From positions 448,001-512,000 of the forward strand of contig JBJBCN010000003.1 in NCBI GenBank assembly GCA_047285805.1: a DNA stretch of 64,000 nt. Reading direction: 5' to 3'. A program made the translations under genes and the position numbers. The notes under the pieces were generated by a model. The model did no database searches. It saw only the letters and a program-made list of their open reading frames with translations, and had not been told where the DNA came from. Each line of letters starts with the position of its first letter. Positions within the stretch are counted from its first letter, which is position 1. Of the stretch, positions 31,127 through 44,297 are shown one piece after another. Source of the DNA: Synechococcus sp. GTDB lineage: Bacteria; Cyanobacteriota; Cyanobacteriia; PCC-6307; Cyanobiaceae.

Positions 31127-33045
<1,919 letters not shown>

Positions 33046-33056
33046 GCCGGAAGAAT

Positions 33057-34184
33057 ATGCACGTCTCATTCTTTAAAAAGCCTCAAATTAACTCTCAATA
33101 TCGAAAAAAGTTCTATGAGTACCTAGATCAACTCATTACCGGTGATGATTCGCTAGTTTTGGGTCACTACTGTAAGGAGTTTGAAAAAGAGTTTGCTAGA
33201 ACTCTTGGTGCTTCTCATTGTAACTTTGTCTCTAATGGCTTAGATGCTCTTTCAATTGCACTGAGAGCCGTAGGTGTACAGGCTGATGATGTTGTTATTG
33301 TTCCCAACCACACTTACATTGCAACTTGGATCGCACCTCTCTCAATTGGCTGCAATTTGATAGTCGCACCTGTTTCTGAGATTGATCTATTACTTGAGCC
33401 CTCTACGATTGAGAAGTATATAACAAGCAAAGTTCGTTGTATTATTCCCGTTCACTTATATGGGAATGCGTGCCAAATGCAGAAAATCATGTGTTTGGGT
33501 GAAAAGCACTCCCTAGTTGTTGTTGAGGATGCAGCTCAGGCACATGGAGCTAGATCTGGTGACAAATATATAGGTAATTGGGGTGATGCAACATGCTTTA
33601 GTTTTTATCCAACTAAAAACTTAGGTGCTCTTGGAGAAGCGGGTGCTGTTACCACGAACGACCCTAGGATCGCATCATTTGTTCAAAGCTATAAGAACTA
33701 TGGACGCTCTTTGTCTGATCCGTCTCTTAATACTCTGCTAGGTTCAAATCATCGTGGCGATGAAATTCAGGCAGCATTCTTAACTATTAAGCTCATGGCT
33801 CTCGATAAAATCATTAAAAGGCGACACGAAATAATCCAAAGGTATGAGCAGCGTATTAATGGCTCTACACTACCTTTTAAGCTGCTTCCATATCATAATT
33901 GTCAGAGTTCTCCCCATCTAGCAGTTGTACGTACAGAGAACAAAGCAACCAGAGACTCTCTCGCCGCATATTTGCACGCTAAGCAGATAGATGCTCCAAT
34001 TCACTATAAAAGACCTTGCCACACACAGCCGTGTATTGACACACAAAGAATTTCGATCGACCAAGAGTGCAAAGAACAGGCTCTCAAGATTTCTGAGACT
34101 ATCCTCTCAATTCCAATGAGTGAAGTACATACTAATGAAGAAATCGACTATGTGATTGAGACTCTTTGCCAATATGAATCATAA
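33057..34184 (+). CDS. DegT/DnrJ/StrS aminotransferase (FdtB-like)
   Basis: SNGLDAL, PVHLYG, EDAAQAHGA and PLP-lysine motif FSFYPTKNLGALG. Confidence 0.93.
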   Translation: MHVSFFKKPQINSQYRKKFYEYLDQLITGDDSLVLGHYCKEFEKEFARTLGASHCNFVSNGLDALSIALRAVGVQADDVVIVPNHTYIATWIAPLSIGCNLIVAPVSEIDLLLEPSTIEKYITSKVRCIIPVHLYGNACQMQKIMCLGEKHSLVVVEDAAQAHGARSGDKYIGNWGDATCFSFYPTKNLGALGEAGAVTTNDPRIASFVQSYKNYGRSLSDPSLNTLLGSNHRGDEIQAAFLTIKLMALDKIIKRRHEIIQRYEQRINGSTLPFKLLPYHNCQSSPHLAVVRTENKATRDSLAAYLHAKQIDAPIHYKRPCHTQPCIDTQRISIDQECKEQALKISETILSIPMSEVHTNEEIDYVIETLCQYES

Positions 34185-34189
34185 CCCCC

Positions 34190-34646
34190 TTCAGCTGATA
34201 ATCGGATTCCTTTAGCTTGGTTCCCTGAAACAACTGTATGGCATGCTACTGACATTGTTGCAACGCTTAGTTGCTGAAACCATAGAGCCTTTGCTAATTC
34301 TGATACGTGGCAAGATCACAGCTGCAGCACTAATGCGGCACCCTTCTTCAACTAAGATTATCTCAGGCTGCTTGCAATATTAGCTCTTTGGTTTTAAGTC
34401 GTTGAAGAAAGGCACCCAAGGTCCTATTAAAATAGAATCAATAATGATTCCTCCTCGCCAAAGAGAGACTTTTTTGATAGCAACTAGGTCACCTGTAATA
34501 GCCACGCTCTCAACAAAACACCTGTCAGATATGCTGCGGTCAGCACCAATTATTGCGCCTGAAATCATACTAACATATGACAATAACCTTTGTCTTTCTC
34601 CTACAAGCAAAGTCTTGATCACAGGGTGACGACCTTTGAAATACCC
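34190..34646 (-). pseudogene. Decayed FdtC/WxcM-like hexapeptide N-acetyltransferase
   Basis: Reads GAIIGADRSISDRCFVES..VSLWRG..IGPWVPFFNDLKPKS*YCKQP..VEEGCRISAAAVILPRIRISKGSMV, then shifts frame to HTVVSGNQAK. In-frame TAA at 34380-34382. Confidence 0.75.
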
Positions 34647-34706
34647 TTAAGCTGCAACCGCAAACTTATGAACATGATACGATGAGAATTACAAATAGTA
34701 ATCTTA

Positions 34707-36032
34707 ATGGATCAAGTCAAGGCAATAAAACTGCTTTCAGAAGGCGGAATTGAGAGGCTCTGCTTAGCTTTGATGGACTATGACTACGATCTTTATGCGC
34801 AGGCTAAAGAGAACGAAGGGCAGTTAAACTATCTTAGATATCAAGGCAAGATAGAGTGGGCCGTTCAAAACTATCTATACACTAATCTTTATGGCTCAGC
34901 GGAATCTGTAGCCACTTCGTTAGCGAAAAAAAATAGCCTGAACAAACAAACCTCCGTTGAATCTAAGTTTCTTGAAAAAACAATTCTTCTTCTTCATAAT
35001 CCAAGTTTGGCTGCACATATCTCTGTTCTCACATCTATGCAGGAGGCTTTCTTAGACTCATTCAGATCGGACGGTCTATACATAGCCGTTCTGTTTAAAG
35101 ATGTTGAATATGCTTGGTGGAAGGACGAGATTCAATCTAGAGGATTTACTTGCATTCCTCAACGTGACTGCTCTCCATTCCAAACACTGATGGAACTACG
35201 TGACGTATACCGACCTAAGCAATATATATGGTGGGGTCCTCCCGTCTACCAGTGGCTTAGTCCTCTAATTGATCCAGGTGCTATTCATCGAAGCGTCAGC
35301 TTTAAATACGATGTTCCTCAGTCGCCGCGCTTCAATTCACATCATATTGGCTATGGAAAAAACTATGCAAGCAAAATCAGTTCGGTGGTTCCAGTTTATG
35401 GCTTTCACCAACCAATCACTCTTTCATCGATGCCAGGTGTATTACCTTCTCAGCTTCAAGAAGCTGCATCTAAGTCTCAAATGTCGTTGAGAACTAACGC
35501 TATGTCAACTCGATCAAGAATAAATATAGGCGTACTTGCACGAGCCGAAAAAGTCGCACAGCCAAGCTATCTAGATGCGATTTTACAAATACTTCATCAA
35601 GACAATAGGCTTGTTTTTCATTGGACAGGACAGCACGAACGTGGCGATATATCTGCCGCTTTTGAAAAGTATGGCCTGGCAACCAGACACCATTTTCATG
35701 GTTGGGTGAATCCCTACGACTTTCTTTGCGAACTCGATCTCTACCTGGATACTTTTCCCTTTGGCACTGGTCAAAGCCTTGTGATGGCCGGATATATGGG
35801 ACTCCCAATCATTTCCTTAGTCTCACCTTATGAAGCTAGCTTCACTAACCTCTTCAATAACTTTCTGTTGGAAACTCTTACAGTGCAGTCAGCAAAGGAC
35901 TATGTAGCTCGCGTTCTTGACATATGTGCCGAAAGGCATGAAGTCCCTATTGGTAGTGAATTGCACGATCAATTCAGGCTATGCTTCGATCGTCAATCCC
36001 TAATTGACCTGCCGGCTCAACTTGCTCTGTAA
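34707..36032 (+). CDS. Putative glycosyltransferase with GT41/HMW1C-like C-terminal domain
   Basis: ARAEKV..YLDAILQIL, HFHGWV and LDLYLDTFPFGTGQSLVMAGYMGLPIISL resemble the GT41 C-terminal motif. Confidence 0.6.
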   Translation: MDQVKAIKLLSEGGIERLCLALMDYDYDLYAQAKENEGQLNYLRYQGKIEWAVQNYLYTNLYGSAESVATSLAKKNSLNKQTSVESKFLEKTILLLHNPSLAAHISVLTSMQEAFLDSFRSDGLYIAVLFKDVEYAWWKDEIQSRGFTCIPQRDCSPFQTLMELRDVYRPKQYIWWGPPVYQWLSPLIDPGAIHRSVSFKYDVPQSPRFNSHHIGYGKNYASKISSVVPVYGFHQPITLSSMPGVLPSQLQEAASKSQMSLRTNAMSTRSRINIGVLARAEKVAQPSYLDAILQILHQDNRLVFHWTGQHERGDISAAFEKYGLATRHHFHGWVNPYDFLCELDLYLDTFPFGTGQSLVMAGYMGLPIISLVSPYEASFTNLFNNFLLETLTVQSAKDYVARVLDICAERHEVPIGSELHDQFRLCFDRQSLIDLPAQLAL

Positions 36033-36802
36033 TGGCCTTTAACGGACACTTCCTGGCGATCGTTAAAGCATATATCGACCTGATCAACAATAGAAATGAA
36101 CCAATGCATCCAACGCGTACTCTTTTTAGTGTAGGCTTTCCTGATATCGTTTCTAAGCAAGGCTCCCTCGATCCTCACATTGATCAGCACTTAAAACCCT
36201 TTGAGATACATAGCCCAGAAACGCTGAGCTGGCATAATCTTCCCAACGATAATACATATACTACTTATAGCATGTCAAAATTTTGTGCTAGTGAAGGATG
36301 GGACTGTAAATACCTAGACATTGCGCCGGGCACCGGTGGCAATTCTTCATCATTTCACCATGTAGATCTTAACAACGACCTGGATCAGTCATTGTACTCA
36401 TCTTGTGACATACTTATTGACAGCGGCACTGCCGAGCACTGCTTTAATATAGGCAAGGTATTCGAAAACTACTTTCATATATTGCGACCCGGAGGTTTTG
36501 TATTGCAATATATTCCCTTCTTGTCGCCAAACCATGGATTCTGGAGCGCCAATCCAACTGTTTTTTATGATTTGGCAAGCTGTAATCCAATCAAGGTATT
36601 CTTGTGTGAAATGCAGTCATTTGCCAGCTACCGAGACTATTTCGTCGGCGACTATCAAAGCATTCCCTTTTCCCCGGTTTCTCGGTTTAAATTGCCTGCC
36701 GAGCTAAGCCTTGATATGACAGTGCTCATGTTCGCTGTATACAAAAAGTACAAGAAAAGTACTTTCAAGTATCCCATTCAGGCCAAATATCGCCCACTGT
36801 AG
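36032..36802 (+). CDS. Class I SAM methyltransferase-like protein
   Basis: VDLNNDL and DILIDSGTAEHCFN..HILRPGG..NHGFWS. TAATG coupling to the upstream gene. Confidence 0.6.
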   Translation: MAFNGHFLAIVKAYIDLINNRNEPMHPTRTLFSVGFPDIVSKQGSLDPHIDQHLKPFEIHSPETLSWHNLPNDNTYTTYSMSKFCASEGWDCKYLDIAPGTGGNSSSFHHVDLNNDLDQSLYSSCDILIDSGTAEHCFNIGKVFENYFHILRPGGFVLQYIPFLSPNHGFWSANPTVFYDLASCNPIKVFLCEMQSFASYRDYFVGDYQSIPFSPVSRFKLPAELSLDMTVLMFAVYKKYKKSTFKYPIQAKYRPL

Positions 36803-37132
36803 AGTTCACTTATTGCGTCGACCATGTAGAATATGCTTCATCTCACCTTCTGAGGTTACATTACGTTAATAGTATATCTTTCTTGGGCCTTAGACAAGCC
36901 GCATCCCTATTCCTGACTTCCACTCGATATGGGAACTAGTTGTTTCCCTAATTAATGGAACCCTGACCCGTTGTTTGCTCCTTATTTGCGTGGGGTGGGG
37001 TGCTGGCGTTCTTGCTTTCCTGTTGGTCTCACGGTCTTCGCCGTATGAAAGCAATGCTCCCAGTAGTATGGTCGCTTATTAGCGACCATACTCGTTCCTG
37101 CTATGATTCGTCTACGTTATTGATGTGTCAGT

Positions 37133-37714
37133 GTGAGTGTCATTACAGATGCATACCTCAAAGAGCAGCAAGAACTACACAAGAATCCTAAGTATGGTAT
37201 TGCCTCCACAATATATGCTCCAGTTGTAACTGAGGTAATTAAACAGCTAAAAATATCTACACTAACCGATTATGGTGCCGGGAAGCAAAGACTTTATCAA
37301 GCCTTGGTTGATAACGGCATACACCTAGAAAAATATAATCCTTATGATCCAGCTTTTCCTGAGTATGGAAATCCAAAGCCTGCGCAGCTAGTTTGCTGCA
37401 TAGATGTGCTTGAGCATGTTGAATTAGATTGCCTGGATGACGTGCTATCTGAAATTCATAGAAATATGCAAGGCTATTGTTTTCTGACTGTTCACATTGG
37501 GCCAGCAGCGAAGCATCTCTCTGATGGTCGCAATGCTCATATCACTCAGGCTCCATCATCATGGTGGCTAAAAAAGTTGACAGACTACTTTGAAGTCCTA
37601 CAGCTTCAAACAACTACTGCGCTTGGTCGAGGTTTCTGGATCATAGGTAGCAAGAAAAAAGGTGAGTTGAAGATAAACTCACATGAACGGCTTAAGAATT
37701 CTCCTCCTTCGTAA
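37133..37714 (+). CDS. Class I SAM methyltransferase-like protein
   Basis: Motif I LTDYGAGK, YDPA, LVCCIDVLEHV and LSDGRNAH..SWW. Confidence 0.7.
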   Translation: MSVITDAYLKEQQELHKNPKYGIASTIYAPVVTEVIKQLKISTLTDYGAGKQRLYQALVDNGIHLEKYNPYDPAFPEYGNPKPAQLVCCIDVLEHVELDCLDDVLSEIHRNMQGYCFLTVHIGPAAKHLSDGRNAHITQAPSSWWLKKLTDYFEVLQLQTTTALGRGFWIIGSKKKGELKINSHERLKNSPPS

Positions 37715-38130: not shown

Positions 38131-39282
38131 CTAGGCTGAAACATTAGCCATCGCAGCGAGGGCATCCTGAATCCATTTCTGCTCTCTTAATCTAAGCTGT
38201 TCAGACTTGCGGCTTAATAGCATCTCATCATCACGAAAGCGTTCTGTTAGCCTAGTTGCAATATAACGTGTAAGATCTAGCTGATAAATAGAATCAGCTT
38301 TCAGATGTTCAATTAGCATCTTTTCAACTCTTGCATAACCAATGGCCATATCACTTAAGCCATGAACTGCAGCACCTAATCCAAATAGCTTGAGATAAGG
38401 CTGGCAAAGCTCTCCCATTACAGCGGCATCATGATCAGTAAGTCTGTAGCCCTTCTTAGCCTTTGCTGAGGCAAAGCCCTGAATACCTACACTTCGTGTT
38501 GTCAAAGGAGTCGTAAAACTAGATCCACAGAATGTAGACTGATGCAATGATGAATGATAGCTAATACCAAGGTATGAACATATTCTGTTCAGTGAACTGA
38601 GTGTATCTGTCTTCAACTCTTCAAGCGTAATCGTCATAGCATTGTGGTGAGCCTTAAAGGCTATTGCGTCACTCATGGAAAACATCCAAAAGAACGAGAA
38701 AATCTTCGCCGGATCAGCCGAAAGGTCGGCAACCCATGTTGTAAGAGACTCAATATTATCCTTAAGCCCCCTTCCCTGCATAATCACTTTAAAACTAGAA
38801 TCTACCGAATACCCCACTGCCTCTTTAACGCTACCAATTGGGTCAATTACATCAGCATTGAGCAGTAGGTTGCCGTTACTTGTTTTTATATCTAGGCAAA
38901 GGTTGTGCACAAGTGCCAGGGATCTTAATATAGTCTCCTGAGAATCACCCGCTCCAAGGCTCTTATGTAAATATCCTTGCTCTTCTGCACATCTTGTTAA
39001 TCGTGACAACGTTAGATTATATGGAAGCCTCGAAGGGCCGGCTTTTATCGCGTCTAAGCCACCCATTCGAACATGCACCGGTGAAAATTGTTCTGAGTGA
39101 AATACTTTTAAAACTTCTTCAAATGTAATGCTGCTACGCTCTTCATATACTGTCTGGTTAAGCCACTGCCAAGTCCGAAATAGTCCCGAGCCGGGCACCG
39201 TAATGATGTCTGGATGGTCGCTCAAAAGGCTTTGATGAAAGTAACAACCGCATCGTCCTTGAGGCAAGATAATATAAATCAT
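38131..39282 (-). CDS. Sulfotransferase-fold protein (candidate phosphoramidate transferase)
   Basis: 5'-PSB-like loop GRCGCYFHQSLLSDHPDI, RGLKDNIES (RDPRD..S-like) and LEELKTD..LNRICSYLGISY. ATGA-coupled to the cytidylyltransferase. Confidence 0.62.
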   Translation of the reverse strand: MIYIILPQGRCGCYFHQSLLSDHPDIITVPGSGLFRTWQWLNQTVYEERSSITFEEVLKVFHSEQFSPVHVRMGGLDAIKAGPSRLPYNLTLSRLTRCAEEQGYLHKSLGAGDSQETILRSLALVHNLCLDIKTSNGNLLLNADVIDPIGSVKEAVGYSVDSSFKVIMQGRGLKDNIESLTTWVADLSADPAKIFSFFWMFSMSDAIAFKAHHNAMTITLEELKTDTLSSLNRICSYLGISYHSSLHQSTFCGSSFTTPLTTRSVGIQGFASAKAKKGYRLTDHDAAVMGELCQPYLKLFGLGAAVHGLSDMAIGYARVEKMLIEHLKADSIYQLDLTRYIATRLTERFRDDEMLLSRKSEQLRLREQKWIQDALAAMANVSA

Positions 39283-40043
39283 CTTTCTAGTGAAGAGGAA
39301 GTCTTAAAGGCACCGGCAATCATCTCCATTGAATTGTAAAGAAGCAAGTCTGCTTCTTCGTCTACTTCACCCCATCCGTCTGAGTAAGGAACTCCGTAAA
39401 TAGTGCCTGAATCAGACTTCGCTATGCAATTTAAGATGTCGGTCATAAACATCTTATCAACTTTCTTGTTGGACGTCCTTGAAAGCTCGTCCTTGATAAT
39501 GCCCCAACCTTCAGCCGTAAACTTCATCAATCCCATATACTGACCCATAATCCTGTCAAGAGAAACACCCTTTTCGCCCAGCTCGACTACGCGCCTATCT
39601 CTATCGATAATAAAAGACTCTGCATCACTGAGAGGATTCTTAAAGCGTCTCGACCATAGATCGAGCCAGTTCTCATCATACAAGATGGCTATATCATGAA
39701 GAGATCCGATGAGGCTCTCGATAGCAGATGCCTGATAAAATATATCAGAATAACTGACAACTGTAGCGCTCGTAGAAAGCCATTCTGAAGCCGCAAGCAA
39801 CGATCTAACCATATTACTATGCTCCCAACATCTATTTTCGAATGTCACTAATCCTTTATCGGTAAGCATGTCAGCTCTATAGCCAGTAACAATCGCTATC
39901 TCCCGAATGCCAGCCTGATTCAGCGAATTAATCTGTCTATCCAAAAGAGATACTCCTTTAACTTCTACCAAGCACTTTGGCCGATTAAGTGTATGCTTTC
40001 CCATCCTCGAGCCGCGTCCTGCTGCTAAAATCAATCCCTTCAT
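39279..40043 (-). CDS. LicC-family cytidylyltransferase (Cj1416-like CTP:phosphoglutamine cytidylyltransferase)
   Basis: ILAAGRGSRM..RPKCL, SNMVRSL, VSYSDIFY, PLSDAESF, GQYMGLMKF and WGEVD. Confidence 0.88.
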   Translation of the reverse strand: MKGLILAAGRGSRMGKHTLNRPKCLVEVKGVSLLDRQINSLNQAGIREIAIVTGYRADMLTDKGLVTFENRCWEHSNMVRSLLAASEWLSTSATVVSYSDIFYQASAIESLIGSLHDIAILYDENWLDLWSRRFKNPLSDAESFIIDRDRRVVELGEKGVSLDRIMGQYMGLMKFTAEGWGIIKDELSRTSNKKVDKMFMTDILNCIAKSDSGTIYGVPYSDGWGEVDEEADLLLYNSMEMIAGAFKTSSSLER

Positions 40044-40624
40044 AAAAATAGGCTCTGAATACGGTCAAGCACAAAAGAGTCTAGTTGAGGTTCTCTCTCT
40101 GGATGCCACATCCAACCTTCCCATGGCAAAGCCATATGCCTGATTGCTTCGATCTCCATATCTTCAGATCGCGCAATAACTTTAAAACCTATCGGGCACG
40201 ACTCAAGAGCATATTCGTGGAAACTATTGACGTTCCAACAGATATCCCCCGATAGTACATGCCTAACTTTGACGTGTGCGGCGACCCTATGCAGCGCAAC
40301 ACCTCCCCATTTACCCATGAGCTGCATTCCTCGACAAATGCCAAGAACGGGAAGCCTTTCTTCACTTGCTATATCTAGTATAGAGATCTCTGTATCGTCG
40401 CGCGATTGAGACTCTCCAAGATTATTTCCACCGGTCAACAAGAAACCACACGGCTTTACATGCCTAATCCACTCCTTGGTGTAAGGCCCCAACACATTGG
40501 GTATTGGCACTGGTAAAAAGCCGAGCCTTAAAACCATTTTACTAATCTTCTGGTCAATCGCGTCACGAGTCTCTTCTCGTGACGCGATTGTATCAACACG
40601 CTGAGTGACTCCTATAACTCTCAT
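40040..40624 (-). CDS. Class I glutamine amidotransferase/peptidase C26 (Cj1417-like gamma-glutamyl-CDP-amidate hydrolase)
   Basis: IGVTQR, LTGGN, catalytic GICRG, NSFH and MWHPERE triad. Confidence 0.88.
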   Translation of the reverse strand: MRVIGVTQRVDTIASREETRDAIDQKISKMVLRLGFLPVPIPNVLGPYTKEWIRHVKPCGFLLTGGNNLGESQSRDDTEISILDIASEERLPVLGICRGMQLMGKWGGVALHRVAAHVKVRHVLSGDICWNVNSFHEYALESCPIGFKVIARSEDMEIEAIRHMALPWEGWMWHPEREPQLDSFVLDRIQSLFL

Positions 40625-42936
40625 GGAAGAATCGTCACCTTCTTCTTGGCGCAATCGAGGTGAACTCGATCAGCCATCGAAATCTTTCTGTAGAGAACTT
40701 CTCCAGTACCTATAACAGCCGGAAGCCCCAGCTCACCCGCACGAATAGCCATATGTGAATTAACCCCGCCCCAAGCTGTTACTAATCCCCCAATCCCGTA
40801 AGCAAAAAGCCAGTCATAACCCGGGTCTGCATGTGAAATGCATACAATCTTTCCTTCTAAAGCATTTGAATTATCTGCAAAGCACACTGATGAGACTATT
40901 TCTTTTTGACTTATAAAGTTTGGAATCGTTTCAGGCCACTCAAACTGCCATACATCTGAATGATCGACTATTAGGGGTGGAAGAGTCGTTCTGAGCGCTG
41001 CCTCATACTGGACACGCCCTTGTTCAATCGAAGTATTCAAAAGCTTGACGGGATCTGTCGCTGAAACTGCTAGTTCCTGGAAGGCCCTTATCTCACAGAA
41101 TGCAAGATCTTCACGACTGAAACCGTAGCTTTCTCCTACCTGCGAGACTAACTCAAGCGCATCTGAAAGATTCTTTGAAAATTCAAACTTTGCCAGTTCC
41201 CGCATCTCAATACCTGTTTGCATAAAGTCAAATAGACTCACTGCATCGATATCTAATTCATGAGTTGATAAAAGATGATTTAACTCTTTCATCTGATCTA
41301 AACGCAGAGAAAACGATTCTTCCTGATGGTTCTTGCCTATGTCAGCGTCCCAGTTAAAATAACGGTCCGGAGCTTGGTCGTATCGTGGCGACGTTATGTC
41401 ATAAGTCCCAGGTCTTAAATGACCATAACGACGCAGAAAATTGGATCGATCCAGAGTTGTCCGATCGCGAGTCAACTTCTTGCTAACAGTTGACAGAGAC
41501 TCCATGAACCTATCAGCATCTGATCTGGACAATATTCCCGTTGTCACTAGGGATTGCAACATCTGAACAGCTATAAAGCCAGCCCGAGCTAGTCCTGCGA
41601 ATGGTAATGTCCCATAACGTTTGCCGTCTTCAAGTAGCCAATATATTTTTTCTATGGGATGAGCATCGCCGTGCAAAATTTGATCCCGTCTTTCCTTAAG
41701 TCTCCCAATCTTCTTAGAATCATTTAGCCATAGCCCCTTTTTGGGGTGAACAATGGCATTAGTCAGATCCTTGAGACTTTCAGAAATCCGCAGACAATCG
41801 TCTTTCGAAAAACCGCTTTCGCTGAGAACATCTAATCGAGAATCAAGGTCAAAAGTATAGCACGAAAAAACTATCTCAAACTCGATCTTGTCGTGCAGTG
41901 CCGGTTGCTCAAGAAGCTTCCCGAGGTAGTAGTCAGCCAACCTTGTTGCAATATGCTCTTCTAGCGACGCAGGTATGAACGAGTTAAAAGATAGTCTTAC
42001 ATCTATGTACGGAAGTCCATAGAAATTAGGCATCAGGGGGAAGCTACGAAGGTTCCTATACCCATAGTTATGACGTTGGTAAGCCCATATTGAATCCGTT
42101 ACCATATCTCTATATAGGGACAAAGCTAAAGGCTGAGGACGCAGGCCAACTATTTCAGCCGGATTCCAGTCAGGCATTACTCCATAAACAGTTCTACTTC
42201 CTAGCAAGAAGGAATGCTTTTTCATTCCATCTCTTACCTTATCTTCAATAGACTTTAATCGCTTCTCCTGGCTCTCTTCAGATTCGGGGGTTCTAGCTAA
42301 GACCAGTGGTCGAACCTGAAGTAGCCAAGTCTCAGATTCCTCACGCTCTTGTGTAACTGCAAACTCGCAATCAATAGGCGAATCGTTGAATAGGTGAAGT
42401 AGCTCTTTGAGTAGACTTATTATTGGTGCTAAGGCCGGTAATGGCGCCAATTGGCTCTTAGAAGCCTGTTGCCATATACGACCTCCTTGCCCGCTAGTGA
42501 CAAACTCAGTATCATCTGAATCTGACCAGTTAACTACTCTATATGCTGATCCGTTCGCTGGATCGTGAGAAAAAGCAACACCGGAGCGTATTACATTCTT
42601 TAGCATCGGCTGTATTAGTACCTGATCAGCGTCATTCTCTCGACCATATGAGCTGAAAACATTATCTACCGACTCTTCTAGGTCCTTTCTCTCCACATTG
42701 GGCACTGACAGAAACGCACCAGCGTTAGAGGCGATGCGTGTGTCTTCAAGTCTGCAGCTAGACCGGACAATAAAGCTATTTGATCCATTCAAGGCCTTCA
42801 CTGCCTCATTGATCACGCTTTTCTTATTCTCTTTCCAGCTCTTTAGCGTCAATATATATGATTCCGGGACTCTCGCCGACATTAGTCGTGATCTGACGAG
42901 CTCCAGGTTGTCAGCTTTCGTAGAAAAGCTCACCAT
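40621..42936 (-). CDS. PEP-synthase/PPDK-like L-glutamine kinase (Cj1418-like)
   Basis: FSTKADNL, IVRSS..ED..SNAGAFLSV, LQVRPL, GVMPDWNPAEIVG, YGHLRPGTYDITSPRYD, and phospho-His domain ADPGYDWLF..GGVNSHMAIRAGELG (His728). Confidence 0.9.
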   Translation of the reverse strand: MVSFSTKADNLELVRSRLMSARVPESYILTLKSWKENKKSVINEAVKALNGSNSFIVRSSCRLEDTRIASNAGAFLSVPNVERKDLEESVDNVFSSYGRENDADQVLIQPMLKNVIRSGVAFSHDPANGSAYRVVNWSDSDDTEFVTSGQGGRIWQQASKSQLAPLPALAPIISLLKELLHLFNDSPIDCEFAVTQEREESETWLLQVRPLVLARTPESEESQEKRLKSIEDKVRDGMKKHSFLLGSRTVYGVMPDWNPAEIVGLRPQPLALSLYRDMVTDSIWAYQRHNYGYRNLRSFPLMPNFYGLPYIDVRLSFNSFIPASLEEHIATRLADYYLGKLLEQPALHDKIEFEIVFSCYTFDLDSRLDVLSESGFSKDDCLRISESLKDLTNAIVHPKKGLWLNDSKKIGRLKERRDQILHGDAHPIEKIYWLLEDGKRYGTLPFAGLARAGFIAVQMLQSLVTTGILSRSDADRFMESLSTVSKKLTRDRTTLDRSNFLRRYGHLRPGTYDITSPRYDQAPDRYFNWDADIGKNHQEESFSLRLDQMKELNHLLSTHELDIDAVSLFDFMQTGIEMRELAKFEFSKNLSDALELVSQVGESYGFSREDLAFCEIRAFQELAVSATDPVKLLNTSIEQGRVQYEAALRTTLPPLIVDHSDVWQFEWPETIPNFISQKEIVSSVCFADNSNALEGKIVCISHADPGYDWLFAYGIGGLVTAWGGVNSHMAIRAGELGLPAVIGTGEVLYRKISMADRVHLDCAKKKVTILP

Positions 42937-42940
42937 GTTT

Positions 42941-43714
42941 CTACTTCTTAACTCTTGCTGACCAGGCTCGAGTTAGGTATGTAGCATTTATGCATTCTAA
43001 GCTACTAACCTTTTCCTCTACATACTGCATGAATTCCTCGAATGAGTTGGGCCCTAGCTGAACTCTTAGGTCATTAACAGATCTCCACGCTGTCAAATAT
43101 CTTTCAGTGCTCATCGCAATCTCATGAGTGGCTTCCATGTAGATAACATCCTCAAAGAGTCGAGACTCCCTAAGTCTTTGCGTCAATGACTCGGTCATGC
43201 CTGATCTGCCAGATGAAACGCGTCTCACAGAAGGCTTGATGACTTTGATCTGTGCTTCAATTTCGACTAAAAGTGGGTTGGCTTCAATGAGTCGTGGGTT
43301 CCAAACAGCTGTGAAAACACCTTCTGGTTTTAAAACCCTATAAAATTCTTGTGTTGCAGTTTCAAAATCTGCCCAGTGAAAGCTTGACGCCATACTCACC
43401 CAATCACTACTTGATGACGGCAGCCCTGTATGCTCGGCAGAGCCTTTAAGCCACTGAATCTGCTTACCTGCGCTATCTAAGATCCCTGCATCTCTCATAT
43501 CATCATTTGGCTCGACAGCCGTGGAGGAATAAACACCCTTAGAGGCAACCATCCGTGTCCATATTCCAGTCCCTGCACCAATATCAGTAAAAGCAATATC
43601 TGACACCTGCTTACCTGTATATCCAATTATGGAACTGATTACCGAATCGCTGTAGTTGGGGCGGCTAGATGAGTAACTGGAGGCAAGCCCAGTGAAATCA
43701 GCATGCTTTAGCAT
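42941..43714 (-). CDS. SAM-dependent methyltransferase (Cj1419/Cj1420-like)
   Basis: DFT..Y..RPNYS, DIGAGTG, AVEPNDDMR, MASSFHW, WNPR, RVSSG, AWRSVND and RAWSAR. Confidence 0.88.
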   Translation of the reverse strand: MLKHADFTGLASSYSSSRPNYSDSVISSIIGYTGKQVSDIAFTDIGAGTGIWTRMVASKGVYSSTAVEPNDDMRDAGILDSAGKQIQWLKGSAEHTGLPSSSSDWVSMASSFHWADFETATQEFYRVLKPEGVFTAVWNPRLIEANPLLVEIEAQIKVIKPSVRRVSSGRSGMTESLTQRLRESRLFEDVIYMEATHEIAMSTERYLTAWRSVNDLRVQLGPNSFEEFMQYVEEKVSSLECINATYLTRAWSARVKK

Positions 43715-44297
43715 TGTGCGATTTAACCCAACGTTCAATTGACTTTATCATTGATTCTGCGACCTTTACTGCGTTGCTCTCTGCATTGAACTCAAGCTCC
43801 CAGTTTGGATGCTTGGGTTCATCTACAGGCAGGTCCAATCCTGCAACATTGGATAATTCACCAGATCGGAAGCGTTTGTATATGTCTTTGGGATCCCTCT
43901 CTTCTAGTTTCTGGAGCGGGACCTTTAGGTACGCCTCGAAATAATTTGCAATATTCTCCCTGTTCCATGAATATACTTCTTCGAACATAGATATAGTCGC
44001 TATTATCACAACGACTCCTTGGGAGGCTAGGAGCCTGCACAGCCGCGAATAGCTTCTCGCTAGCGACAATCTCTCTGATCGCATGTGTGCATCGCCTGTG
44101 TCTGTTGATCCAAAGACCTCTCTGAGCTCGTCGCCATCGAGGCGCACCACGCATTTCCCTAGTCCAATGTAGTGATCGGCTACTAGCTTTGCCGTTGTTG
44201 ACTTTCCAGCACCTGATAATCCTGTTATCCAAATCACGAGGCCTTCCTCCTTCTCTGAACTCGGACTTGTTTCCTTCTTTGTTTTTAGTGCTTTCAT
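43698..44297 (-). CDS. APS-kinase-like protein (Cj1415-like cytidine diphosphoramidate kinase)
   Basis: IWITGLSGAGKST, LDGDELR, ATISMF, RDPKDIY and VAGLD. Confidence 0.85.
   Translation of the reverse strand: MKALKTKKETSPSSEKEEGLVIWITGLSGAGKSTTAKLVADHYIGLGKCVVRLDGDELREVFGSTDTGDAHMRSERLSLARSYSRLCRLLASQGVVVIIATISMFEEVYSWNRENIANYFEAYLKVPLQKLEERDPKDIYKRFRSGELSNVAGLDLPVDEPKHPNWELEFNAESNAVKVAESMIKSIERWVKSHNAKAC

Follow-up and report, generated by a model that had tools for sequence, protein, structure and literature searches.

A sulfotransferase-fold protein encoded in a Synechococcus operon as a candidate phosphoramidate transferase

In a stretch of 64,000 nucleotides from Synechococcus sp. (contig JBJBCN010000003.1, positions 448,001 to 512,000; the window, by which we mean this whole stretch), the last gene of a six-gene operon encodes a protein with the fold of sulfotransferases. 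Comparative genomics favours the prediction that this protein, the target of the present analysis, is a transferase for phosphoramidate. It probably takes phosphoramidate or its methylated form from 3'-phospho-cytidine-5'-diphosphoramidate and places it on a hydroxyl group of a surface glycan. The initial annotation had suggested that a sulfotransferase scaffold was repurposed here for the transfer of PO2-NH2. Gene neighbourhoods read in both directions, co-occurrence across genomes, the exclusion of a second protein family from the same slot and a link to a 3'-kinase all support that suggestion, which we regard as likely.

On the proposed route, the five genes upstream of the target would make the donor, by the successive action of a glutamine kinase, a cytidylyltransferase, a hydrolase and a 3'-kinase, and the methyltransferase among them would supply the O-methyl group of the phosphoramidate. 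The 3'-phosphate added by the kinase would be the handle gripped by the sulfotransferase fold, as it is with 3'-phosphoadenosine-5'-phosphosulfate (PAPS), and the leaving group would be 3',5'-CDP (cytidine diphosphate), the counterpart of 3'-phosphoadenosine-5'-phosphate (PAP) in sulfation. The probable acceptor is a glycan with 3-amino-3,6-dideoxyhexose, a sugar whose synthesis would fall to the other half of the island. In Campylobacter, according to the accessible portion of PMC6429109, the pathway includes the N-phosphorylation of glutamine and has 3'-phospho-5'-cytidine diphosphoramidate as its end product, in agreement with the starting point of the initial annotation, that the product of Cj1415 is a 3'-phosphonucleotide donor. 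The order of the steps of the donor pathway is given in the available part of a bioRxiv preprint on Borg elements. The foremost competing explanation, which we consider unlikely, is that the target is an ordinary PAPS-dependent sulfotransferase acting on the same glycan, and that another, unrecognised enzyme attaches the phosphoramidate.

Linkage to the donor module and to its 3'-kinase

Loci of the Cj1418 family were taken as the best 80 of about 1000 estimated stretches, one genome per species. Ten cyanobacterial loci and the window were added, and seven loci without a full-length open reading frame (ORF) were set aside, leaving 84. A profile of the target family matches (E<=1e-3) in 27 of these 84 loci with a full-length Cj1418-family gene, 18 times at E<=1e-20, and all 27 matching ORFs lie at most 3.2 kb from that gene. 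The usual order is sulfotransferase-like gene, kinase, methyltransferase, Cj1418, Cj1417, Cj1416. Eight of the nine weaker matches were scanned with Pfam (the ninth, L040, lay outside the scan): six exceed a curated sulfotransferase cut-off (L028, L049, L060, L070, L091, L095) and two stay under it (L043, 24.9 bits; L081, 23.4 bits). Two further loci, L014 and L045, contain Pfam sulfotransferase ORFs that the profile missed. The titles of the kinase-gene loci name Pseudomonadota, Leptospira, Opitutia, Bryobacteraceae, Actinomycetota (an actinomycete metagenome-assembled genome) and Prochlorococcus; no Campylobacter or DUF2972 sequence is among the best 80 loci.

The association also appears when it is approached from the sulfotransferase side. 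Among 47 metagenome loci found by the N-terminal motif of the family, 18 contain the donor module (14 complete, 4 partial at a contig edge) and seven have no module despite at least 5 kb on each side; the remainder are too short to tell. Two metagenome loci, L110 and L139, hold sulfotransferase-like genes beside APS-kinase-like genes (APS, adenosine-5'-phosphosulfate) whose products are 23-27% identical to the island kinase, with no Cj1418 homologue on the contig, and may be true PAPS pairs. At the level of genomes, NF004508, which we take to be the Cj1418 family, scores above its cut-off in 12 of 401 cyanobacterial genomes. Full-length matches to the target family at E<=1e-20 occur in nine of these 12, versus 2 of the 389 genomes without NF004508. 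Thus the co-occurrence with Cj1418 homologues that the initial annotation had named as a check on its idea is found among loci and among genomes alike, and an ordinary PAPS sulfotransferase leaves this tracking of the glutamine-kinase gene unexplained. Several positive genomes carry sulfotransferase-like genes on a contig other than that of the module, and therefore an unlinked copy is no counter-example. Tandem pairs of sulfotransferase-like genes of about 600 aa, next to DegT, were seen in L166 (G040:C33:254000-257700) and similarly in G004, G013, G031 and G034; the pairs lie off the module contig, yet all five genomes carry the module.

We tallied the 3'-kinase over 97 loci with a Cj1418-family match, including seven plasmid loci. 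Kinase and sulfotransferase-like gene are both present in 33 loci, the kinase is present and the sulfotransferase-like gene absent in 53, and both are absent in 11, of which six are short contigs and the other five lie on plasmids, with 7 kb available to either side. A sulfotransferase-like gene in the absence of the kinase was found in 0 loci. This pattern, drawn from small numbers and non-independent loci, is the one to be expected of a sulfotransferase fold that depends on the 3'-phosphate, whereas an ordinary PAPS enzyme offers no explanation for 0 such genes in the 11 loci where the kinase is missing. In two of the kinase-free plasmid loci other enzymes are annotated after the module, a CDP-glycerol glycerophosphotransferase on a plasmid of Vibrio alfacsensis and a CDP-alcohol phosphatidyltransferase on one of Agrobacterium vitis. 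With no 3'-kinase in these loci, the CDP-type transferases would use non-phosphorylated CDP-amidate. On plasmid AZO_p6 of Azospirillum lipoferum, where the kinase is present, the second gene past the cytidylyltransferase independently bears the RefSeq label 'sulfotransferase domain-containing protein'.

Some of these loci have further peculiarities. In L169:3638-6178 (AZO_p6), L080 and L084 a long N-terminal region precedes the kinase in a fusion, giving ORFs of 846, 654 and 594 aa, and the N-terminal region of the 846-aa ORF has no match to the sulfotransferase-like profile. The kinase-free module of the V. alfacsensis plasmid pVa1 (L170) is divergent from cysD/cysN and an SLC13 permease; its PEP-utilising protein (PEP, phosphoenolpyruvate) is N-terminally extended, and the N-terminus resembles the cytidylyltransferase.

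A second family competes for the slot directly upstream of the kinase. Proteins of about 393 aa (family f6, e.g. L026:7475-8656) occupy it in 21 of the 84 loci, in Pseudomonas, Ensifer, Janthinobacterium and other hosts (loci L023-L058 among others), and in none of the 84 do f6 and a sulfotransferase-like gene occur together, a mutual exclusion that ordinary sulfation leaves unexplained. Family f6 has no Pfam match and no PDB sequence match. We consider it a second candidate transferase. The idea that f6 is a hidden sulfotransferase was rejected (hhalign probability 0.8% against the target family, besides the lack of a PDB sequence match), and so was the idea that a 441-aa protein of the island is f6-like (hhalign probability 0.1%).

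Fold and donor-binding motifs of the target

Against Pfam the target has no family at E<=0.01. A relaxed search yields Sulfotransfer_1 at E 0.011 (15.6 bits, cut-off 22) and no match to Sulfotransfer_3. An exhaustive search of 1.84 billion representatives returned 65 relatives at E<=1e-3, of which P0002 (33% identity, E 1.8e-33) is the sole close one, and 21 of 29 scanned relatives carry Sulfotransfer_3 or Sulfotransfer_1, often behind tetratricopeptide (TPR) repeats. A family profile built from 29 members matches in PDB the CurM sulfotransferase (4e-19) and the tyrosylprotein sulfotransferases (TPST, about 1e-14). Because the relatives carry these domains and the profile matches CurM, the target is homologous to sulfotransferases by transitivity. 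In accordance, its AlphaFold2 model (pLDDT 79.6, pTM 0.81) has sulfotransferases as top matches in Foldseek, a comparison that the initial annotation had called for. Among the 44 matches listed, 43 are sulfotransferases or the related retinol dehydratase, and the one exception is a viral RNA polymerase (E 0.029, probability 0.63). The fold occupies residues 1 to about 310 and is followed by a helical C-terminal extension; the hydropathy maximum over 19 residues is 1.14. Homology and model show that the target has the sulfotransferase fold, as the initial annotation had supposed, and we regard it as a soluble enzyme. It is the sole member of its family in its own genome, where no other was found. 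A word-indexed protein search with the target returned only the target itself, and one with the family profile returned five proteins, none new in kind.

The initial annotation had laid weight on altered PAPS motifs. The letters stand as it gave them, GRCGC at residues 9-13 and RGLKD at residues 171-175; their diagnostic value does not, because GR[S/C/A/T]G[S/A] and R...ES are the norm of the whole subfamily, and R171 and S179, which would hold a 3'-phosphate and align with the Arg and Ser of the CurM 3'-phosphate motif, are kept. The full subfamily pattern reads GR[S/C/A/T]G[S/A]...HP..(L/I)PG, then R.P...(E)S, LED(L/V)(K/H) and ..GF. Members were compared in alignments made with hmmalign, and the family tree was built with FastTree. 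Alignments A1 and A2 both show invariant G12 and R171 and nearly invariant R10 and S179, and across the family R10, G12, H23, R171, S179 and E221 are all invariant or nearly so. The target loop thus keeps its basic residue and its glycine and has cysteines (C11, C13) in place of hydroxyl residues. The (I/L)PG of the family, with P30-G31 nearly invariant, falls opposite the P-E of CurM PPELH in the profile alignment. The glutamate at this position, presumably the catalytic base in CurM, is kept in the canonical outliers P0022 and P0055 and is a glycine in the target family. We also looked in the hmmalign alignment for a motif signature that would split module-linked from unlinked members, and there is none within the subfamily.

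The operon and its island

The genome comprises 2.37 Mb in three contigs and is 100% complete; the same taxonomic family also has genomes of 1.6-1.7 Mb. Six co-oriented genes, separated by overlaps or gaps of a few bases, run on the minus strand from 44297 to 38131 (Table 1), and the target is the last of them. At the junction, gaaagATGAtttat, the target ATG shares bases with the TGA stop of the NTP-transferase gene (39279-40043), and, read on the minus strand as ctagaaagATGAtttatatt, the junction contains the ATGA overlap of target start and preceding stop. The initial annotation, which gave no strand, was thus right that the target is the last, ATGA-coupled gene of the operon. No RNA holder is listed for the operon.

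Table 1. Genes, motifs and island half discussed in the text, by position in the window
Feature	Position	Strand	Evidence or remark
Island half with FdtA-type ketoisomerase, DegT aminotransferase, 441-aa weak GT-B glycosyltransferase and further proteins	32524..37714	+	Pfam
Target, sulfotransferase-fold protein, candidate phosphoramidate transferase	38131..39282	-	383 aa, ATG start
3'-phosphate-binding-type motif R171-G-L-K-D-N-I-E-S179	38746..38772	-	aligns to CurM LVRHP...IES
5'-phosphosulfate-binding-type loop G9-R10-C11-G12-C13	39244..39258	-	aligns to CurM PRSGS in the profile alignment
Cj1416-like nucleotidyltransferase, predicted CTP:phosphoglutamine cytidylyltransferase	39279..40043	-	Pfam NTP_transf_3 2e-19
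Cj1417-like glutamine-amidotransferase/C26-type hydrolase	40040..40654	-	Pfam Peptidase_C26; NCBIfam NF045546
PEP-utilising enzyme, Cj1418 (L-glutamine kinase) family	40621..42936	-	Pfam PPDK_N and PEP-utilizers; NCBIfam NF004508
Class I S-adenosylmethionine (SAM) methyltransferase, predicted phosphoramidate O-methylation	42941..43738	-	Pfam Methyltransf_11 3.8e-15
Cj1415-like APS-kinase-like kinase, predicted cytidine diphosphoramidate 3'-kinase	43698..44297	-	Pfam APS_kinase 3.6e-29

All four enzyme types of Cj1415-Cj1418 are encoded together. The PEP-utilising enzyme scores 973 bits against NF004508 (cut-off 501). For the hydrolase the top family by far is NF045546, 'gamma-glutamyl-CDP-amidate hydrolase' (E 8.4e-28), with 97.8 bits under a cut-off of 250. 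The APS-kinase-like protein scores 186.7 bits against NCBIfam PRK05541 (cut-off 127), and the nucleotidyltransferase belongs to NTP_transf_3. The island kinase is the second, divergent copy of the APS-kinase type in the genome: a canonical APS kinase elsewhere (G000:C3:750500-750952) scores 232 bits to PF01583, versus 102.6 for the island kinase. The five-gene donor set is kept as a unit in about 70 loci. In 9 of 10 cyanobacterial loci a homologue of the cytidylyltransferase-like protein is encoded beside the Cj1418-family gene; the methyltransferase, whose place directly upstream of the kinase-family gene is conserved, has homologues in 9 of these 10 and in 62 loci in the clustering. The methyltransferase and hydrolase ORFs, both listed with TTG starts, probably begin further downstream, because homologue alignments start at residues 10-14, and later starts would erase the apparent overlaps of 34-41 bases.

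The plus-strand half of the island also encodes a 256-aa protein without a family and one of 193 aa that resembles methyltransferases; on the plus strand of the island between 32500 and 45000, two methyltransferase-like genes were counted. This half likely supplies the acceptor glycan. The island, at about 32.5-45 kb, has a GC content of 0.42-0.46 versus 0.62-0.65 in the surrounding genome, and is flanked by thiC/kdsA-like and transketolase/fabF-like genes. None of 29 other genomes of the same family searched (one of the same genus and 28 others) has an NF004508 gene, and the island therefore looks horizontally acquired.

Competing explanations and known systems

How firmly does this evidence bind the target to phosphoramidate? 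Several points weigh against the proposed transfer. As regards the enzyme itself, the kept residues R10, G12, R171 and S179 suit, by sequence, PAPS as well as the cytidine donor, and a base pocket for adenine is not distinguishable from one for cytosine by computation here. The target is a long branch of the tree, at most 33% identical to any relative, and its own clade consists of P0002 and eight proteins; an exact look-up of P0001, P0002, P0003 and P0007 yielded neither a name nor a genomic context. PAPS is probably made in the host, because the genome has a second, canonical APS kinase. The labels Cj1415-Cj1418 rest on NCBIfam names, architecture and synteny.

As regards the co-occurrence, the threshold of E<=1e-20 was picked after the list was seen, and at E<=1e-8 the counts become 11 of 12 genomes with NF004508 versus 60 of 389 without, most of the weak matches covering no more than the domain core, in some cases within very long ORFs. 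In G258 and G128, which match at E<=1e-20 without NF004508, the family members lie beside DegT genes with no module; one of their loops is of the canonical KSGT type and the other lacks a basic residue. The loci are not independent, as they include several from Pseudomonas and six genomes of one cyanobacterial genus. A well-supported clade of about 730-aa members (ten rows), mostly from marine metagenomes, has no module nearby. In five genomes that carry both module and kinase, no family match at E<=1e-5 and no DUF2972 were found; there must accordingly be further transferases that are unrecognised, and the sulfotransferase fold is not the universal partner of the module. Two of these observations can be specified. 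The G258 member, L164:9596-10768, comes from a 1.7-Mb genome of the same taxonomic family without the module, and SCTGS replaces GRxGS, leaving no basic loop residue. The 730-aa clade comprises L108, L113, L114, L122, L132, L134, L136, L143, L145 and L151, four of these loci having at least 5 kb on both sides and six being short.

Ordinary PAPS-dependent sulfation draws on part of this evidence: the fold and every kept residue are shared with PAPS enzymes, a canonical APS kinase is in the genome, family members stand beside DegT genes in module-free genomes, and the Vibrio plasmid module adjoins cysDN. It would, however, leave the operon without a phosphoramidate transferase, as no gene of the Cj1421/22 type and no f6 gene was found, and the genome tracking, the kinase tally and the exclusion of f6 set out above are left without a cause. 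We therefore keep it as an unlikely explanation. Less probable still is that another island protein, for example the weakly GT-B-like one of 441 aa or the one of 256 aa that has no family, transfers the phosphoramidate, and that the target has a side role in 3'-phosphonucleotide binding or recycling or as a non-catalytic partner. The family glycine of P30-G31 at the position of the CurM PPELH glutamate, the two cysteines where Ser/Thr is usual, and the use of CDP-type phosphotransferases by the kinase-free variants would fit such a role. Yet neither protein has relatives in 90 other module loci (blastp, clustering), whereas the sulfotransferase-like gene recurs there, and the six family-conserved residues are as expected of an active enzyme. 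Finally, it is very improbable that the Campylobacter labels are wrong, so that the operon makes no phosphoramidate donor and the target acts on some other 3'-phosphonucleotide-activated group: the labels come from family names, architecture and synteny, the NF045546 score is under its cut-off and the PDB sequence searches with the four donor-module proteins yielded generic relatives only, with no Campylobacter entry and none at all for the kinase-family protein, but the NF004508 score is nearly twice its cut-off, gamma-glutamyl-CDP-amidate hydrolase is the one named family that heads the matches of the hydrolase, and the five-gene set is conserved as a unit.

Phosphoramidate transfer by the target is thus the reading that we prefer, and it matters in several respects. 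Transfer is the one part of the O-methyl phosphoramidate pathway not yet reconstituted. In the literature from 2024 on we found no reconstitution of a phosphoramidate transferase, and in a search that covered papers outside subscription we found none proposing one with a sulfotransferase fold. The accessible text of PMC13276843 (June 2026), from the laboratory that solved the donor pathway, calls the enzymatic details of the decoration 'currently unclear'. A small, soluble, single-domain candidate picked by operon context lends itself to a direct assay, donor in and 3',5'-CDP out. If true, the proposed transfer would explain the ATP that the pathway spends on the 3'-phosphate, and many module-adjacent genes labelled 'sulfotransferase' would be mislabelled. 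Phosphorus-nitrogen decorations of glycans would then extend far outside Campylobacter, to marine picocyanobacteria, whose surface glycans decide phage susceptibility. A wider picture, in which every part would have to hold at once, is put forward more tentatively, as a possibility falling somewhat short of an even chance: sulfotransferase-fold enzymes would form a widespread class that transfers phosphoramidate, CDP-amidate would be 3'-phosphorylated in order to give them a cytidine mimic of PAPS, Cj1421 and Cj1422 would be remote relatives in fold, and this marine-type picocyanobacterium would have obtained the complete set of genes by horizontal transfer, for methyl phosphoramidate on an amino-sugar surface glycan.

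How does the target compare with known systems? For the known TRANSFERASES Cj1421 and Cj1422 the assignment comes from mutagenesis and nuclear magnetic resonance (NMR), according to the accessible portions of PMC9561416 and PMC3907429; the available part of PMC5808241 describes proteins of about 600 aa in which the N-terminal region is conserved, a membrane segment is predicted and DUF2972 forms the C-terminal part. The target would do the same job, placing (methyl)phosphoramidate onto a sugar, and both are genetically linked to the Cj1415-Cj1418 pathway. It differs in being single-domain and 383 aa long, with no hidden Markov model (HMM) similarity and no poly-G tract. The target has no match to PF11186 at E<=10 and none to NF058596 at E<=1. 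No Cj1421/Cj1422-type gene was found in its complete own genome, which extends to the genome as a whole the remark of the initial annotation that it recognised no such gene in the window, with the caveat that control genomes hardly matched these families. PF11186 was likewise found in none of five other module-bearing genomes. In a protein-language-model search in which sulfotransferase families were skipped, the nearest named clusters are DUF8374 (0.83) and DUF2972 (0.82 and 0.82), mostly from Campylobacterota, with scores that are below the 0.9 level and thus a lead only. It is striking, all the same, that the search should bring up precisely DUF8374 and DUF2972, the two domains of Cj1421/22.

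The TagF-like CDP-glycerol glycerophosphotransferase and the CDP-alcohol phosphatidyltransferase share with the target the slot beside Cj1418/1417/1416 homologues; they differ in having, by annotation, unrelated folds, and they occur in loci in which no 3'-kinase was found. Compared with PAPS enzymes of the Sulfotransfer_3 type (CurM/OLS, 4gbm and 4gox; TPST1/2), the target lies below the Pfam cut-offs, has cysteine where the loop has Ser/Thr, lacks the Pro of RDP, has a glycine where CurM has the Glu of PPELH, and carries a C-terminal extension of about 75 residues. Its gene, unlike theirs, lies in a cytidine-phosphoramidate operon and not in a sulfation context.

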